Of a stretch of 64,000 nucleotides of DNA, positions 35,089 through 39,460 are shown piece after piece. Source of the DNA: Herbaspirillum frisingense (GTDB lineage Bacteria > Pseudomonadota > Gammaproteobacteria > Burkholderiales > Burkholderiaceae_D); the NCBI GenBank assembly GCA_009914615.1, contig WNDX01000002.1, positions 18,533 to 82,532 of the forward strand, read 5' to 3'. The position numbers and the translations under genes are program-made. The notes beneath the pieces were generated by a model, which was not told the DNA's origin, made no database searches, and saw only the letters and a list, made by a program, of their open reading frames with translations. Position 1 is the stretch's first letter, and the number at the start of each line of letters is the position of its first letter.

Positions 35089-36072
35089 CTATTGCAGCAA
35101 TCCCCCGGCGCCCGCCGCGGCCACGCTGCTGGCCAGCACCGCCGCGGCCGAGCGGGTTTCCACGCCCAGTTTCACGAAGATGTGTTCCAGGTGCTTGTTG
35201 ACCGTGCGCGGGCTCATGCCGAGGATGTCGGCGATATCGCGGTTGGTCTTGCCCTTGCCCAGCCAGAGCAGCACGTCGCTTTCGCGCGGCGTCAGGCGCA
35301 GGCCTTCGAAGGAGGGCGGGACGGCCGCATCGTCGCCGGCCGCCGGCGCGGTAACCGCCGTCTGTTTTTCTTCCAGCAACAGCGTGATGCCATGTCCTTG
35401 CCCGGGGCCGGACATGGCGATGCTCAATTCGCAACCGTCGCGCGCCACCACCAGCGGCGCCACATCGCCGCCGTCGCCCTGGCGCCGGCGCACCAGGCTT
35501 TCGTTGAGCCAGGCTTGCAGCGGCGCCGGCAATTTGGCGGCGCCGGACGCACTGCCCGCGCCGAAATATTTCTCCAGCCACAAGGATGCCTTGCTGGTCT
35601 GCCACAGCGGCAGGCCGTGACCGCCGAACACGATCACGGCGTGCGCCGCATGCTCCAGCACGCCGCGCGTCTGCGACATCATGCGCGCCGTGCGGATGTG
35701 GGCGCCCACGCGCGCCACCACTTCTTGCGGGCGGATCGGCTTGGTGACGTAGTCGATGCCGCCGACCTCGAAGCCGCGCACCACGTGCTCGGTTTCGGAC
35801 AGGCCGGTCATGAACACCACCGGCACATGGTTGACGCTCTTGATCAGCTTGATGCGGCGGCAGGTCTCGAAGCCATCGATGCCGGGCATCATGGCATCCA
35901 GCAGGATCAGGTCGGGCGTGATGTAGTCCAGCCGCTCCAGCGCGCTCATGCCGTCGGTGGCGACCAGCACGATGTGGCCGCTTTCATCGAGGGAATCGGA
36001 CAGCATGGCCAGGTTGTCGGGCATGTCGTCCACGATGAGGACCACATGCCTATCGAACGTCGTTGAGATCAT
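35089..36072 (-). CDS. Response regulator (REC domain, linker, LuxR/NarL HTH)
   Basis: LIVDD, LLDAMMPGIDG and TKPI; C-terminal LTPRESDVL...KTNRDIADILGMSPRTVNKHL. Confidence 0.93.
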   Translation of the reverse strand: MISTTFDRHVVLIVDDMPDNLAMLSDSLDESGHIVLVATDGMSALERLDYITPDLILLDAMMPGIDGFETCRRIKLIKSVNHVPVVFMTGLSETEHVVRGFEVGGIDYVTKPIRPQEVVARVGAHIRTARMMSQTRGVLEHAAHAVIVFGGHGLPLWQTSKASLWLEKYFGAGSASGAAKLPAPLQAWLNESLVRRRQGDGGDVAPLVVARDGCELSIAMSGPGQGHGITLLLEEKQTAVTAPAAGDDAAVPPSFEGLRLTPRESDVLLWLGKGKTNRDIADILGMSPRTVNKHLEHIFVKLGVETRSAAAVLASSVAAAGAGGLLQ

Positions 36073-39000
36073 GGCGGATCAGCTCCTTGATGCGGATGAC
36101 ATATTCATTGAGTCGGAATTGCTTGACCAACTGCCGCAGCTCGGTGGTGAAGGGCAGGTAGGCCGGATTCTGGCGCTCCATCTCGTCGAGCTGGCGCAGG
36201 ATTTCCTTGGCGTAGCCGATGGCGCCCAATTCCAGCAGCGCCTGCAGCTTGCGCTGCGCCGGCACCAGCATCAGCGGCTGGGGCACGGGTTCCGTTTCGA
36301 CGCGCGGCGGCGCGGAGATCCAGTCCAGTTGCAGCTGCTGCCGGATCTTGGCCAGCAGCTCGTTGTATGACACCGGCTTGACCACGACGTCGTTGTAGAG
36401 CGGCGGATCGGTGCGTTCATAGGCGTTTTCGAAGGCATCGGCCGACACGAAGATCACCGGCAAGCGCGTCAGCCCGCGCGCGCGGATGGCGCGCGCCACC
36501 GACCAGCCGTCCATCAGCGGCATGGCGATATCCAGCAGCACCAGATCGGGCAGGGCTTGCGCCAACTGATCCATGCAGGCGATGCCGCTATCGGCCTCGC
36601 TCACTTCGAAACCCAGCGGCAGCAGCATTTCCTTGAGCAGGCGCCGCTGCGAAGCCTGGTCGTCCACCACCAGCACCCGCCGGGAAGGGCCGGCATAACC
36701 CGACATCTGGTCTTCCAGCTTCAGGCGTGGGCGCGGCACGTGCACCTCGGGCAGATAGATCTTCAGGTGGAAGCTGCTGCCGTGGCCGACCTGGCTTTCC
36801 ACCGACAGTTCGCCGCCCATGATGTGGGTCAGCATGCGGCTGATGGCCAAGCCCAGGCCGGTGCCGATGTCTTCGCGCAGGTTGGCGGCGTTGCTGCGTT
36901 CGAAGGGCAGGAAGATGCGCTCCAGGTCGTCGTCGGCGATGCCGATGCCGGTGTCGATGATGTCGAAATAGGCGATCTCGCGTGCATATCGCACCCGCAC
37001 CGTCACGCTGCCGCTGTCGGTGAACTTGACGGCGTTGCCCAGCAGGTTGATGAGGATCTGGCGCAGCCGCTTCTGGTCGGCATGCACGATGGGCGGCAGG
37101 CGGCCGGTCTTTTCGAAGCGGAAGCTCAAGCCCTTTTGCTCGGCCTGGGGCGCGAACATGCCGGTGATCTGTTCCAGGAAGGTCGCCAGCGCCAGTTCAT
37201 CCGAGGCCAGCCGCATCTTGCCGGCCTCGATCTTGGCGATGTCGAGCAAGCCATCGATCAGGCTGAGCAAGTGTTCGCCGCTGCGCCGGATGATGGCGAT
37301 GGCGTCCTTGCGCGCCGGCGGGATGGTGGCATCGACGTGCAGGATCTGGGCATAGCCGAGGATGCTGTTGAGCGGCGTGCGCAGCTCGTGGCTCATGCCG
37401 GCCACGAAGCGGCTCTTGGCCAGGTTGGCCGATTCCGCCGCTTCCTTGGCGCGCTGCAGCTCGGCGTCGGTCTGCTTGTGCGCCTCGATTTCCTGCAGCA
37501 GCAGATTGGTCTGGCGTTCGGATTCCTCCTGCGCCACGGCGCGGCTCTCATTGGTCAGCACCAGCCACCAGGCGCCCACGCCGACCACCACCAGCAGCGT
37601 ACAGAACAGCTTGACGAAGACCCCCAGGATGGAGTCGGGCGAACCCGGCGTGCTGCCGGAGAGGTCGGCCATCTGCTGGAAGTACAGCATCCACAGCACG
37701 ATGGCCAGGCCGCCGGCGAGCGGGCCGAAGACGAGCAGGTAGTGGCCGATGCGGGTATTGAGCTTGAGCGAGAAGCGCGCCGGCACCAGGCTGCGCAGGG
37801 TATGGAAGATCTGATTGGGAAGCCGCGCGGCGGGCGTCTTGCAGCGGTCGTTGCAACGCGCGTCGAGCGAGCAGCACAGTGAGCAGATGGCGCCCTGGTA
37901 GGCCGGACAGTGCGCCATGTCGGGCGTTTCGAAGCGGTTGCCGCAGATCACGCAATCGAGCTGGTCCTGGGCGTGCGCCGCGTGGCCGGACAGCGTGTCG
38001 CGCCGGGCGATGTAATAGCGGCTGCCGGTGGCCAGCGCGATCAGCGGCGCGCACAGCAGCGCGGTGCCCAGCGCGATGAAGGGCGCCAGCGCGGCCGCCG
38101 TCTTGCCCAGCGCGCCCGACATGGCGACGGCCGAGAGGATGGAGGCGATCGCCATCGAGCCCACGCCCACCGGGTTGACGTCATACAGGTGGGCGCGCTT
38201 GAACTCGATATGCGCCGGCGAGAGCCTGAGCGGCTTGTTGATCACCAGGTCGGACACCACCGCGCCTATCCATGACATCGCCACCAGGCTGTACAGCGCC
38301 AGCACGTGTTCCAGCGCATTGAACACGCCCAGCTCCATCAGCAGCACCGCGATCAGCACATTGAACACCAGCCAGACCACCCGGCCCGGATGGCTGTGCG
38401 TGAGCCGCGCGAAGAAATTGGACCAGGCCAGCGAGCCGGCATAGGCATTGGTGACATTGATCTTGATCTGCGACACCACCACGAACAGCACCACCGCGCC
38501 CAGCGCCAGCGCCGGGTTGGAGAAGACGTACTGGTAACCCACCAGGTACATCTGGGTCGGCTCCACTGCCTTACTCATGGGGATCTCGTGCTGGATCGCC
38601 AGGAAAGCCAGCAGGGCGCCGCCCAGCATCTTGGCGCCGCCCAGCAGGATCCAGCCTGGCCCGGCCAGCAGCAGGGCAGTCCACCAGCGGCCGCGGTTGG
38701 CCGGCGTCTTCTCCGGCAGGAAACGCAGGAAATCGACCTGCTCGGCGATCTGGGCGATCAGCGAGAAGGCCACCGTGGACGCCGCGCCGAACAGCAGCAG
38801 GTTGAAGGAGTGCCCGTCCTCGGCGCGGCCGGCGAAGGTGATCAGGTTGGCCAGCGCGTCCGGTTCCTTGTGCAGCACGCAGATGTAGGGCAGCGCCAGC
38901 AGGACGATCCACAGCGGCTGGGTCCACATCTGCAGGCGGTTGATGAGGGTGATGCCGTAGGCCACCATCGGAATGATGATCAGCGAGCAGAGCACGTAGC

Positions 39001-39460
39001 CATAGACCAGCGGCAGGCCGAAATAGATTTCGACGGCCTGCGCCATGATCGCCGCCTCCAGCGCGAAGAAGATGAAGGTGAAGCTGGCGTAGATCAGCGA
39101 GGTCACCGTGGAGCCGATGTAGCCGAAGCCGGCGCCGCGCGTGAGCAGATCCATGTCCACCCCGTAGCGCACCGCGTAGTAGCCGATCGGCAGGCCGGTT
39201 AGGAAGAACAGCACCATCACGCACAGGATGGCCCAGAAGGTATTGGTGAAGCCGTAGCTCAGCGTGACCGCGCCGGCGATCGCTTCCAGCGCCAGGAAGG
39301 AGGTCGCGCCCAGCGCCGTGTTGGCCAGGCGGAACTCCGACCAGCGCCGGAACGAGCGCGGCGTGTAGCGCAGCGCATAGTCTTCCAGCGTCTCCTTGGC
39401 GACCCAGGTGTTGTAGTCGCGCCGGACCTTGACGATCCTTTGTGTGGCGGGGGTGGTCAC
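36050..39460 (-). CDS. Hybrid sensor histidine kinase with an N-terminal NCS1/cytosine-permease-like membrane domain
   Basis: About 12 TM segments, then MSHELRTPLN (H box), NLLGNAVKFT, DTGIGI, GTGLGLAIS and a REC domain (VVDD...LDIAMP); GTG start inferred. Confidence 0.9.
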   Translation of the reverse strand: MTTPATQRIVKVRRDYNTWVAKETLEDYALRYTPRSFRRWSEFRLANTALGATSFLALEAIAGAVTLSYGFTNTFWAILCVMVLFFLTGLPIGYYAVRYGVDMDLLTRGAGFGYIGSTVTSLIYASFTFIFFALEAAIMAQAVEIYFGLPLVYGYVLCSLIIIPMVAYGITLINRLQMWTQPLWIVLLALPYICVLHKEPDALANLITFAGRAEDGHSFNLLLFGAASTVAFSLIAQIAEQVDFLRFLPEKTPANRGRWWTALLLAGPGWILLGGAKMLGGALLAFLAIQHEIPMSKAVEPTQMYLVGYQYVFSNPALALGAVVLFVVVSQIKINVTNAYAGSLAWSNFFARLTHSHPGRVVWLVFNVLIAVLLMELGVFNALEHVLALYSLVAMSWIGAVVSDLVINKPLRLSPAHIEFKRAHLYDVNPVGVGSMAIASILSAVAMSGALGKTAAALAPFIALGTALLCAPLIALATGSRYYIARRDTLSGHAAHAQDQLDCVICGNRFETPDMAHCPAYQGAICSLCCSLDARCNDRCKTPAARLPNQIFHTLRSLVPARFSLKLNTRIGHYLLVFGPLAGGLAIVLWMLYFQQMADLSGSTPGSPDSILGVFVKLFCTLLVVVGVGAWWLVLTNESRAVAQEESERQTNLLLQEIEAHKQTDAELQRAKEAAESANLAKSRFVAGMSHELRTPLNSILGYAQILHVDATIPPARKDAIAIIRRSGEHLLSLIDGLLDIAKIEAGKMRLASDELALATFLEQITGMFAPQAEQKGLSFRFEKTGRLPPIVHADQKRLRQILINLLGNAVKFTDSGSVTVRVRYAREIAYFDIIDTGIGIADDDLERIFLPFERSNAANLREDIGTGLGLAISRMLTHIMGGELSVESQVGHGSSFHLKIYLPEVHVPRPRLKLEDQMSGYAGPSRRVLVVDDQASQRRLLKEMLLPLGFEVSEADSGIACMDQLAQALPDLVLLDIAMPLMDGWSVARAIRARGLTRLPVIFVSADAFENAYERTDPPLYNDVVVKPVSYNELLAKIRQQLQLDWISAPPRVETEPVPQPLMLVPAQRKLQALLELGAIGYAKEILRQLDEMERQNPAYLPFTTELRQLVKQFRLNEYVIRIKELIRHDLNDVR

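Follow-up and report, generated by a model that had tools for sequence, protein, structure and literature searches.

A transporter-like sensor kinase as candidate switch for amide and urea scavenging in Herbaspirillum frisingense

Soil, plant-associated, aquatic and host settings all offer urea and small amides as major sources of nitrogen. The textbook regulators of their use are general nitrogen control, UreR and AmiC/AmiR, and the detection of urea and amides by bacteria is mostly poorly defined. In Pseudomonas aeruginosa, amiE is controlled by the cytoplasmic sensor AmiC and the RNA-binding antiterminator AmiR, which serve short-chain amides. CbrA is a kinase of SLC5 fold that binds and transports histidine in a LeuT-type pocket, with a lysine in the Na2 site (PMC7096432; PMC13022988), and CrbS, also a hybrid kinase, has a partner, CrbR, that controls the catabolic gene acs (PMC5715377; PMC9100948). 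The fmdCABDEF cluster of Methylophilus methylotrophus encodes a formamidase, FmdB, a porin and an amide/urea ATP-binding cassette (ABC) importer and is induced by formamide or urea and repressed by ammonia; the words ‘two-component’ and ‘sensor’ are absent from the text of the 2024 review of formamide metabolism in which it is described. Here we analyse a 64-kb stretch of Herbaspirillum frisingense DNA (contig WNDX01000002.1), called the window, whose positions are used as coordinates throughout. It carries a gene for a hybrid sensor histidine kinase with a transporter-like membrane domain and a gene for a LuxR-type regulator, both on the minus strand and divergent from urtABCDE-amiE-fmdA-fmdB. 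Our observations are best explained by a two-component switch with which the cell would scavenge nitrogen from small amides and urea. On balance we favour the full form of this proposal, in which a transporter-derived sensor kinase and its LuxR-type partner would switch on the uptake of small amides and urea and their hydrolysis, with the amide or urea itself as the pocket-bound signal. A full-text literature search, whose reach stopped short of many subscription papers so that prior work is possible, returned no functional study of ligand or mechanism for this kinase family. Genome papers mention only co-location, in one case of a ‘hybrid HK/LuxR regulator’ beside a second urt operon and in another of an amiE-fmdA-fmdB-urtABCDE cluster. 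Within the literature searched, the system thus remains under-described, as an earlier reading of the bare sequence (the original prediction) had supposed.

The membrane domain and the kinase

What kind of protein is the sensor? Sequence searches returned little for its N-terminal half. Pfam (residues 1-500, residues 481-680 and the C-terminal tail, at E <= 10) gave nothing meaningful and no match anywhere in residues 1-680, NCBIfam searched with the whole kinase gave only generic hybrid-kinase similarity over residues 640-1048, and PDB sequences searched with residues 1-660 gave only snake toxins on the Cys-rich stretch (E ~3). Residues 1-660 were aligned with 87 homologues (88 sequences), and this alignment served both to score residue conservation and as input to AlphaFold2. 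The resulting model has a mean predicted local distance difference test score (pLDDT) of 75.7 and a predicted template modelling score of 0.78; it comprises 12 helices over residues 42-477, then a small domain of beta hairpins (490-545) and finally a pair of long helices (570-602 and 608-659). When it was compared with the PDB by Foldseek, CodB (7qoa) came first (E 1.2e-8, target-normalised TM-score 0.74), and the top five matches comprised CodB 7qoa and the Mhp1 entries 2jln, 4d1a and 2x79, with TM-scores of 0.60-0.69 for Mhp1. Nramp, SiaT, NIS, ApcT and other LeuT-fold proteins ranked lower, with E values at least 100-fold worse. The original prediction had staked its view of the domain on this comparison, accepting that a fold other than NCS1/LeuT would overturn it, and the ranking of CodB and Mhp1 in first place bears it out.

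A link to NCS1 is also discernible at the level of sequence, where our comparisons indicate one that is weak but real. Among 19 diverse members of the family, a single one matches PF02133, the Transp_cyt_pur entry for NCS1 transporters (TC 2.A.39), and does so below threshold (E 7.5e-4; 17.9 bits for the full-length protein against a cut-off of 23.5), and a profile built from the 19 sensor domains aligns by hhalign with E. coli CodB with transmembrane helices (TM) 1-4 in register (E 1.2e-4, probability 56%). By inspection, LLTRGAGFGYIGS resembles LLAR-FSFGVKGS of CodB, QVDFLRF resembles ADFVRF and INVTNAYAGSL resembles TTNDNALYASGL. The three peptides singled out by the original prediction, TRGAGFGYIGS (the counterpart of the CodB motif ARFSFGVKGS), QVDFLRF and INVTNAYAGSL, are all present in the translation and correspond to the CodB motifs of TM3, TM6 and TM8, respectively. 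In addition, the annotation pipeline of the Joint Genome Institute (JGI) tags many family members ‘purine-cytosine permease-like’. As modelled, the membrane domain is LeuT-fold and NCS1-like and falls below the Pfam NCS1 threshold. The label ‘NCS1-type permease’ therefore stands as far as the LeuT fold, the best matches to CodB and Mhp1 and the three motifs are concerned, and it fails for membership of PF02133.

The interior of the domain is strongly constrained. The invariant polar core includes T128, F131, E135, D243, R246, K333, N335, N338 and Y340; Q237 and Q241 vary very little, and the closer relatives all have E240; E135, Q237, E240, Q241, N335 and N338 line TM3, TM6 and TM8. The structure paper on CodB describes an Arg216-Tyr285 pair, the Na2-site residues Thr278 and Thr279 and an aromatic sandwich of W108 and F204 (PMC9379551), and we mapped these residues through an ungapped motif alignment made by eye. 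In this approximate alignment the Arg(TM6)-Tyr(TM8) pair is kept as R246-Y340, both invariant. The Na2-site hydroxyls are not kept, T278 being replaced by the invariant K333 and T279 by I334, and neither is the nucleobase sandwich (W108 to F131, F204 to L234). The pocket would thus be smaller and more polar than that of CodB and probably sodium-independent. We sampled 80 of at least 594 confirmed loci, found in a scan with one genome per species and spanning Beta-, Gamma- and Alphaproteobacteria, Cyanobacteria and Myxococcota. Identity across this sample is 55-72% for the sensor domain and 48-69% for the protein as a whole; the sensor is thus more conserved than the transmitter, which speaks for a ligand or transport site under constraint rather than a passive anchor.

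Eight Cys residues that are invariant in the 88 sequences (C503, C506, C518, C526, C529, C530, C536 and C540; spacing CxxC-x11-C-x7-CxxCC-x5-C-x3-C) follow the permease-like domain. The domain that they define has no Pfam family, probably binds zinc and is assigned to the cytoplasm, between TM12 and TM13, on the strength of the positive-inside rule and NCS1 topology. Since kinase-less members of the family (546-576 residues) consist of permease and Cys domain only, without TM13 and TM14, the Cys domain belongs with the permease. TM13 and TM14 are joined by a periplasmic loop of ~18 residues, and the TM14 helix runs on into the kinase dimerisation domain. Pfam places HisKA at residues 681-747, HATPase_c at 795-903 and Response_reg at 929-1040, all above cut-off. 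The protein has the marks of a hybrid histidine kinase, with H691 and the DxG and GxG boxes conserved and the acidic pocket, Asp and Lys of the receiver (REC) domain nearly invariant; the kinase has no PAS domain. The order of domains originally read from the sequence (permease-like domain, Cys-rich linker, two TM, HisKA, HATPase, REC) is accordingly upheld by Pfam, the alignment and the AlphaFold2 model. A conserved, helical, family-specific tail of 96 residues follows REC. We considered this tail as a histidine phosphotransfer (Hpt) domain or a degenerate one, its GYVKGI resembling H-x-x-K-G, and rejected the idea: it has no conserved His, hhalign gives a probability of 1.6% against a genuine Hpt and there is no PDB match. 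Among the neighbour clusters inspected no Hpt gene recurs beside the kinase-regulator pair, a stand-alone Hpt elsewhere in the genome being possible, and the relay from His691 to the regulator would therefore be either direct or by way of an Hpt protein encoded elsewhere.

The regulator, whose close homologues are all 300-345 residues long, belongs to the NarL/FixJ class (REC PF00072, E 1.5e-26; GerE/LuxR PF00196, E 3.6e-17). Its AlphaFold2 model (pLDDT 83) consists of REC, a beta2-alpha2-beta3 middle domain (residues 144-237), a disordered linker and a LuxR helix-turn-helix (HTH). The middle domain is modelled confidently, and all close homologues keep its W157, Y169 and W188; across the wider family it is weakly conserved. 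Foldseek with the regulator returned only receiver domains and NarL/FixJ-type regulators (StyR, LiaR, FixJ, VraR) and left the middle domain unmatched, which may be termed PAS-like by the modelled order of its secondary-structure elements alone.

Gene neighbourhood and operator-like palindromes

The kinase family is very large, unusually conserved and tied to urease, urea-uptake and amidase genes. One search returned at least 8000 homologues at E <= 1e-3 and a second 1709 representative clusters at 50% identity; the best kinase matches, among the matches listed, are 92% identical. Gene content at the 80 loci was established by tblastn within a distance limit of 10 kb, the queries being the window proteins together with urease proteins that the loci themselves encode. 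At 69 loci urt, fmdA, amiE or urease genes lie within this distance. The kinase is divergent from or adjoins urtABCDE with a UrtA 76-87% identical to that of the window at 34 loci, usually followed by fmdA, and nine of these also carry amiE. A further 22 loci adjoin urease genes, 11 adjoin a urt operon of another type (UrtA 41-44% identical), presumably that of the canonical urea importer, and two, both cyanobacterial, lie beside fmdA or beside urt and amiE. None of these genes is found at the other 11 loci, several of which are on contigs shorter than 10 kb. Clustering of the sensor domains separates an amide-operon clade (A), which holds the window, from a clade linked to urease and canonical urt genes (U). 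The family is thus not specific to amide operons, as a sister clade with the same pocket residues adjoins urease and canonical urea-transporter operons.

The sensor module also occurs with other outputs. In three cyanobacterial members (L009, L029, L047) it sits on a non-hybrid kinase that is followed by a regulator composed of REC and a MarR-like winged helix, and these genes still adjoin urtABCD, amiE or fmdA. The output differs and the neighbourhood is kept, so the association with urea and amides follows the sensor module and not the output. In further members the same module is followed by PAS-GAF-GGDEF-EAL or by GAF-kinase-REC-Hpt, a variety that marks it as a general input module. L009 additionally encodes a second, kinase-less copy of the module (547 residues) on the opposite strand.

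A palindrome, TACGTC-N4-GACGTA, stands between the two divergent units. Even with one mismatch allowed it occurs only twice in the 64-kb window, against 0.05 expected, and both copies (Box 1 and Box 2 in Table 1) fall in the 544-bp intergenic region between the kinase gene and urtA. Exact copies occur once each in 20 of the 80 loci, 19 of them within a few hundred bases upstream of the kinase gene, and of the 33 clade-A loci with both genes, 31 have the palindrome, with up to one mismatch, in the urtA-kinase intergenic region (background, with up to two mismatches, 0.03 per 720 bp). It stands at an almost constant distance from the urtA ATG (median 119 bp, mostly 91-154; 205 bp in the window), whereas its distance from the kinase start varies from 32 to 1264 bp; it therefore behaves as an activator site for the urtA promoter. 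The TACGTC box is essentially absent from clade U, although its regulators share the HTH recognition helix of clade A. Across the loci, a variant that differs by one base, T[AG]CGCC-N4-GGCG[TC]A, occurs 13 times, against 0-3 in Markov controls, and ten of the 13 are in clade-U loci, between ureA and the kinase gene or 140-230 bp upstream of a canonical urtA. A generic screen for inverted repeats common to the regions upstream of urease-linked kinases returned none; direct reading of the intergenic sequences brought out the variant box and, besides it, sigma-54-type promoters. A sigma-54-type promoter (GGCA[CT]-N5-[CT]TGC[AT]; background 0.009 per 300 bp) lies 50-127 bp upstream of the kinase gene at 22 of 48 loci outside clade A, seen among the urease-linked loci L033-L079, and at 4 of 33 within it. 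This suggests NtrC-type nitrogen control of the sensor’s own expression in the urease-linked relatives. A locus of Hylemonella (L061) carries two paralogous kinase-regulator pairs in tandem (3168-7500 and 9995-14400), one of clade A with a TACGTC box beside urtA and the other of the urease clade with a sigma-54 promoter.

Conserved synteny and the operator-like palindrome strongly suggest that the kinase and regulator control the amide operon, as originally claimed. Because the synteny is conserved and the palindrome is locked in position, we consider a regulatory link between the pair and the urea/amide genes highly probable, and the regulator would be the protein that binds the palindromes. 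Public RNA-seq was screened for words sampled from the window: RNA runs contain 6% of them at most, and among runs of unassigned type the best reach 22%, so that a near-identical strain with public expression data appears to be absent.

Proposed mechanism and alternative signals

Based on these observations, we propose a model for the switch. Urea, formamide or acetamide would occupy the central pocket of the permease-like domain, with a proposed lining of T128 and E135 from TM3, Q237, E240 and Q241 from TM6 and K333, N335 and N338 from TM8. A rocking-bundle movement would then be relayed through the Cys-rich domain and TM13/14 to the helices of the dimerisation and histidine phosphotransfer (DHp) domain, where His691 would autophosphorylate. 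The phosphoryl group would pass to the REC/PAS-like/LuxR regulator directly, or through the REC domain of the kinase and a separately encoded Hpt protein. A regulator dimer would bind the TACGTC-N4-GACGTA palindromes between the divergent units and activate urtABCDE-amiE-fmdA-fmdB, and it would probably activate its own operon too, through Box 1. [quoted passage not shown]

A number of observations weigh against this model. The profile of the 19 diverse sensor domains found zero matches among PDB sequences, the window protein stays below the gathering threshold of PF02133, being unmatched at E <= 10, and the mapping of the pocket depends on the alignment made by eye and on an hhalign match of 56% probability. 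The residues that distinguish the amide-linked clade from the urease-linked clade are only kinase position 570 (R/G, outside the permease core) and regulator position 100 (G/A), and none lies in the pocket or in the HTH recognition helix; the sensor alone therefore cannot explain operon-specific induction. The signal might be common to both clades, whether urea only, ammonium or nitrogen status, and other possible sensors at the locus (UrtA, the PAS-like domain of the regulator and FmdB) could carry specificity. In addition, the kinase-urtA intergenic region of the window showed no consensus promoter of either the sigma-70 or the sigma-54 type, and the phosphorelay as drawn is incomplete without an Hpt domain.

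Some kinases use a transporter as co-sensor. Here the permease-like domain could read the state of the Urt importer, or ligand-loaded UrtA, and the output would then report uptake flux. The kinase genes very often adjoin a Urt-type ABC system, UrtA belongs by Pfam to the same periplasmic-binding-protein superfamily (Peripla_BP_5/6) as the amide sensor AmiC, and an identical pocket in both clades is easily explained if a binding protein sets the specificity. However, the periplasmic loops of the sensor are short, that between TM13 and TM14 included, and many clade-U loci adjoin urease genes and lack urt genes over a distance of 10 kb. Moreover, the invariant polar residues are in the membrane core, at the positions of the CodB substrate and ion sites, and fit a ligand site rather than a docking surface. 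Co-sensing is unlikely, although it survives better than the other alternatives. Less probable again is a signal other than the substrate (nitrogen status, ammonium as the common product, pH or membrane potential), by which the genes would be gated by need and not by availability. The pocket residues are the same in the amide-linked and the urease-linked clades, the invariant K333 and the acidic E135 and D243 could form an ion or proton site, and the homologous genes of M. methylotrophus are repressed by ammonia. Yet induction of that same cluster by formamide and urea is documented, and many relatives seem to have a separate nitrogen control in the sigma-54-type promoters upstream of their kinase genes, an arrangement that fits a two-layer scheme of need and inducer.

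The input could also be cytoplasmic, received by the eight-Cys domain as a metal or redox sensor or by the PAS-like domain of the regulator, with the 12-TM domain as a working transporter or an anchor. The family-wide invariance of the eight Cys speaks for this, as do the presence of their domain beside the permease even in kinase-less members and the confidently modelled middle domain of the regulator with its three invariant aromatic residues. On the other hand, the Cys spacing and the small hairpins resemble a structural zinc module, the middle domain of the regulator is poorly conserved family-wide, as would not be expected of a shared ligand pocket, and the cyanobacterial regulator has no PAS-like domain and yet the same gene neighbourhood; we rate a cytoplasmic input as improbable, below both of the preceding alternatives. 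That the neighbourhood is coincidental, the pair controlling unrelated genes and the palindrome serving another factor such as the LysR-type protein or FmdB, is barely credible: a LysR-type gene and fmdB are indeed at the locus and the link from regulator to box is drawn from sequence rather than experiment, but the pair and the urea/amide genes co-occur across several phyla, the box type switches along with the kinase-regulator clade, a 6-4-6 inverted repeat suits a dimer of LuxR/NarL-type HTHs and the LysR gene is not among the recurring neighbour clusters inspected.

What would a pocket-bound urea or amide signal imply? A true sensor would explain the substrate induction of such operons in many Proteobacteria and some Cyanobacteria, would provide a compact, portable expression switch inducible by urea or formamide, with relevance to formamide-based bioprocesses, and would stand beside CbrA as a second model for the conversion of a transporter’s conformational cycle into kinase activity. 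The predicted operator renders the regulon directly testable. More tentatively, and with rather more doubt than confidence, we speculate that the NCS1-like module might be a genuine receptor, possibly also a carrier, for urea and C1-C2 amides, and that a single operator family, TACG(T/C)C-N4-G(A/G)CGTA, might control amidase/formamidase, urease and urea ABC importer operons in several phyla. Such a system would be the first dedicated bacterial urea/amide two-component system and a second class of LeuT-fold transceptor kinase that evolved independently.

The locus and its place among known systems

The features of the locus and of the neighbouring cobalamin cluster are collected in Table 1. The minus-strand open reading frame of the kinase extends from 36050 to 39589, and the GTG was taken as start because the N-terminus it gives, MTTPATQRIVKVRRDYNTW, agrees with the consensus of 87 homologues (MxxxAxQRIVKxRRDYNTW); the coordinates first proposed for the gene proved exact. 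The overlap with the regulator gene and the divergence from urtABCDE-amiE-fmdA-fmdB, both part of the original prediction, likewise agree with the Pfam and NCBIfam assignments.

Table 1. Coordinates of the amide/urea locus, its regulatory elements and the flanking genes in the window
Feature	Position	Strand	Basis and remarks
Hybrid sensor histidine kinase gene	36050..39460	-	1136 aa; GTG 39460; stop codon 36050-36052; Pfam, NCBIfam, 87 homologues
NCS1-like (LeuT-fold) 12-TM sensor domain, ~aa 35-480 (modelled)	38021..39358	-	AlphaFold2, Foldseek, hhalign, motifs, conservation
Cytoplasmic Cys-rich domain, aa 495-545	37826..37978	-	Invariant columns; short beta hairpins in model
TM13 and TM14, aa 570-635	37556..37753	-	Model helices; sequence
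HisKA (DHp), phospho-acceptor His691	37220..37420	-	PF00512, E 7e-19; H-box SHELRTP
HATPase_c catalytic domain	36752..37078	-	PF02518, E 2e-25
REC domain of hybrid kinase	36341..36676	-	PF00072, E 6e-20; nearly invariant columns
Family-specific helical C-terminal tail, aa 1041-1136	36053..36340	-	No Pfam match; motif LLELGxIGYVKGI...RFRLxEY
Response regulator REC/PAS-like/LuxR (GerE) HTH	35089..36072	-	327 aa; Pfam; AlphaFold2 model; overlaps kinase stop by 23 nt
Box 1, palindrome TACGTCAAATGACGTA	39618..39633	.	Centre 166 bp upstream of kinase start; candidate regulator site (autoregulation)
Box 2, palindrome TACGTCAAACGACGTA	39792..39807	.	Centre 205 bp upstream of urtA ATG; candidate regulator site for urtA promoter
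urtA-type periplasmic binding protein, amide/urea-binding (FmdD-like) subtype	40005..41261	+	TIGR03407, 534 bits (cut-off 493); Tat-like signal peptide
urtB, urtC, urtD, urtE (ABC importer permease and ATPase subunits)	41424..45155	+	NCBIfam equivalogs TIGR03409, TIGR03408, TIGR03411, TIGR03410; 381, 442, 380 and 324 bits; with UrtA, 5/5 subunits above cut-off
amiE, aliphatic amidase	45183..46205	+	NF009802, 703 bits
fmdA, formamidase/acetamidase	46309..47487	+	PF03069, E 3e-166; NF045496, 557 bits; start corrected to 46309
fmdB, small Zn-ribbon protein (putative regulator)	47563..47859	+	PF09723, E 4e-8, 33.6 bits, slightly below the 34.4-bit cut-off; CxxC...CxxC
LysR-type gene	47890-48858		Gene beyond fmdB
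cobN	12754-17316		Cobalamin cluster
Precorrin methylase/CbiJ-CobK reductase fusion	25413-26960		Cobalamin cluster
cobO	28140-28742		Cobalamin cluster
cobB	28742-30076		Cobalamin cluster
cobD	31298-32287		Cobalamin cluster
Aminotransferase	32280-33296		Cobalamin cluster
cobQ	33289-34755		Cobalamin cluster

For urtA, the ATG at 40005 is a more likely start than 39900, on account of a ribosome-binding site (AAGGAG) and the twin-arginine translocation (Tat)-like signal SRRRKIL. The signal peptide, SRRRKILMGLAAGAAAAALPGLAMA (40005-40110, plus strand), is twin-arginine-like, and UrtA may therefore leave the cell folded, via the Tat pathway. As to the substrate of the importer, the sequence cannot decide between urea and amides; an amidase-linked urt-like cluster of B. 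japonicum has been argued to import amides (PMC3098086). The module is flanked by the cobalamin-biosynthesis cluster on one side and the LysR gene on the other. A cobalamin riboswitch (11306-11533, plus strand, 104.9 bits) lies upstream of the cob cluster, and a match to the whole twister-sister ribozyme model RF02681 (27491-27576, plus strand; 39.5 bits against a gathering threshold of 34, E 3.3e-5) sits inside the cluster, within or beside an open reading frame with no Pfam match (27324-28094). Elsewhere in the window, a perfect sigma-54 consensus, TGGCACGCTTATTGC, at 6559-6573 on the plus strand is the sole zero-mismatch match, and a DUF3141-family protein of ~930 residues is encoded at 50878-53682 on the plus strand (E 6e-229).

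How does the locus compare with described systems? With CbrA and CrbS (Pseudomonas, Vibrio; RpuS of Sinorhizobium) the kinase shares a complete LeuT-fold transporter domain N-terminal to a histidine kinase. Their transporter, however, is SLC5, whereas the domain described here matches CodB and Mhp1 best, with the SLC5-type SiaT and NIS ranking lower and no Pfam SSF match; they couple through a STAC domain, whereas an eight-Cys domain and an extra TM hairpin take that place here. Both domains that define the SLC5/STAC transceptor kinases, SLC5 (SSF) and STAC, are thus absent. In addition, the present kinase has no PAS domain, its partner is a REC/PAS-like/LuxR regulator and its targets are genes for urea/amide nitrogen scavenging. 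CodB, which transports cytosine, and Mhp1, which transports hydantoin, share the 12-TM LeuT fold and the motifs R-x-x-FG-x-x-GS in TM3, D-F-x-R-F in TM6 and T/N-x-N-A-(x)-Y-A-x-x-L in TM8. In contrast to them, the domain falls below the PF02133 threshold, has Lys333 at the position of the Na2-site Thr278, carries extra invariant Glu, Gln and Asn residues along TM3, TM6 and TM8 and is fused to signalling modules.

The AmiC/AmiR system likewise regulates an aliphatic amidase, and AmiC shares the periplasmic-binding-protein fold with UrtA. Here, however, a membrane kinase and a DNA-binding LuxR-type regulator are present, and neither AmiC nor an ANTAR-domain AmiR is encoded at 35089-48858, where the genes have other assignments (regulator, kinase, urtA-E, amiE, fmdA, fmdB, LysR). 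The structural genes of the M. methylotrophus cluster are the same, namely fmdA, fmdB and those of a Urt-like importer that depends on a binding protein, but in the literature searched only the putative FmdB is described as a regulator of that cluster; by analogy, the kinase-regulator pair is a candidate for the missing regulator of clusters of this type. The regulator shares REC and a GerE/LuxR HTH with NarL/FixJ-type proteins (NarL, StyR, LiaR, FixJ) and differs from them in a PAS-like insert of ~100 residues between the two, which brings it to 327 residues against ~210. Its candidate site, an inverted repeat of half-sites starting with TAC in a 7-2-7-like layout, is one that we take to be reminiscent of NarL heptamers. 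Compared with the known transporter-fused sensor kinases, the one at this locus thus differs in transporter family, in coupling device and in physiological target.

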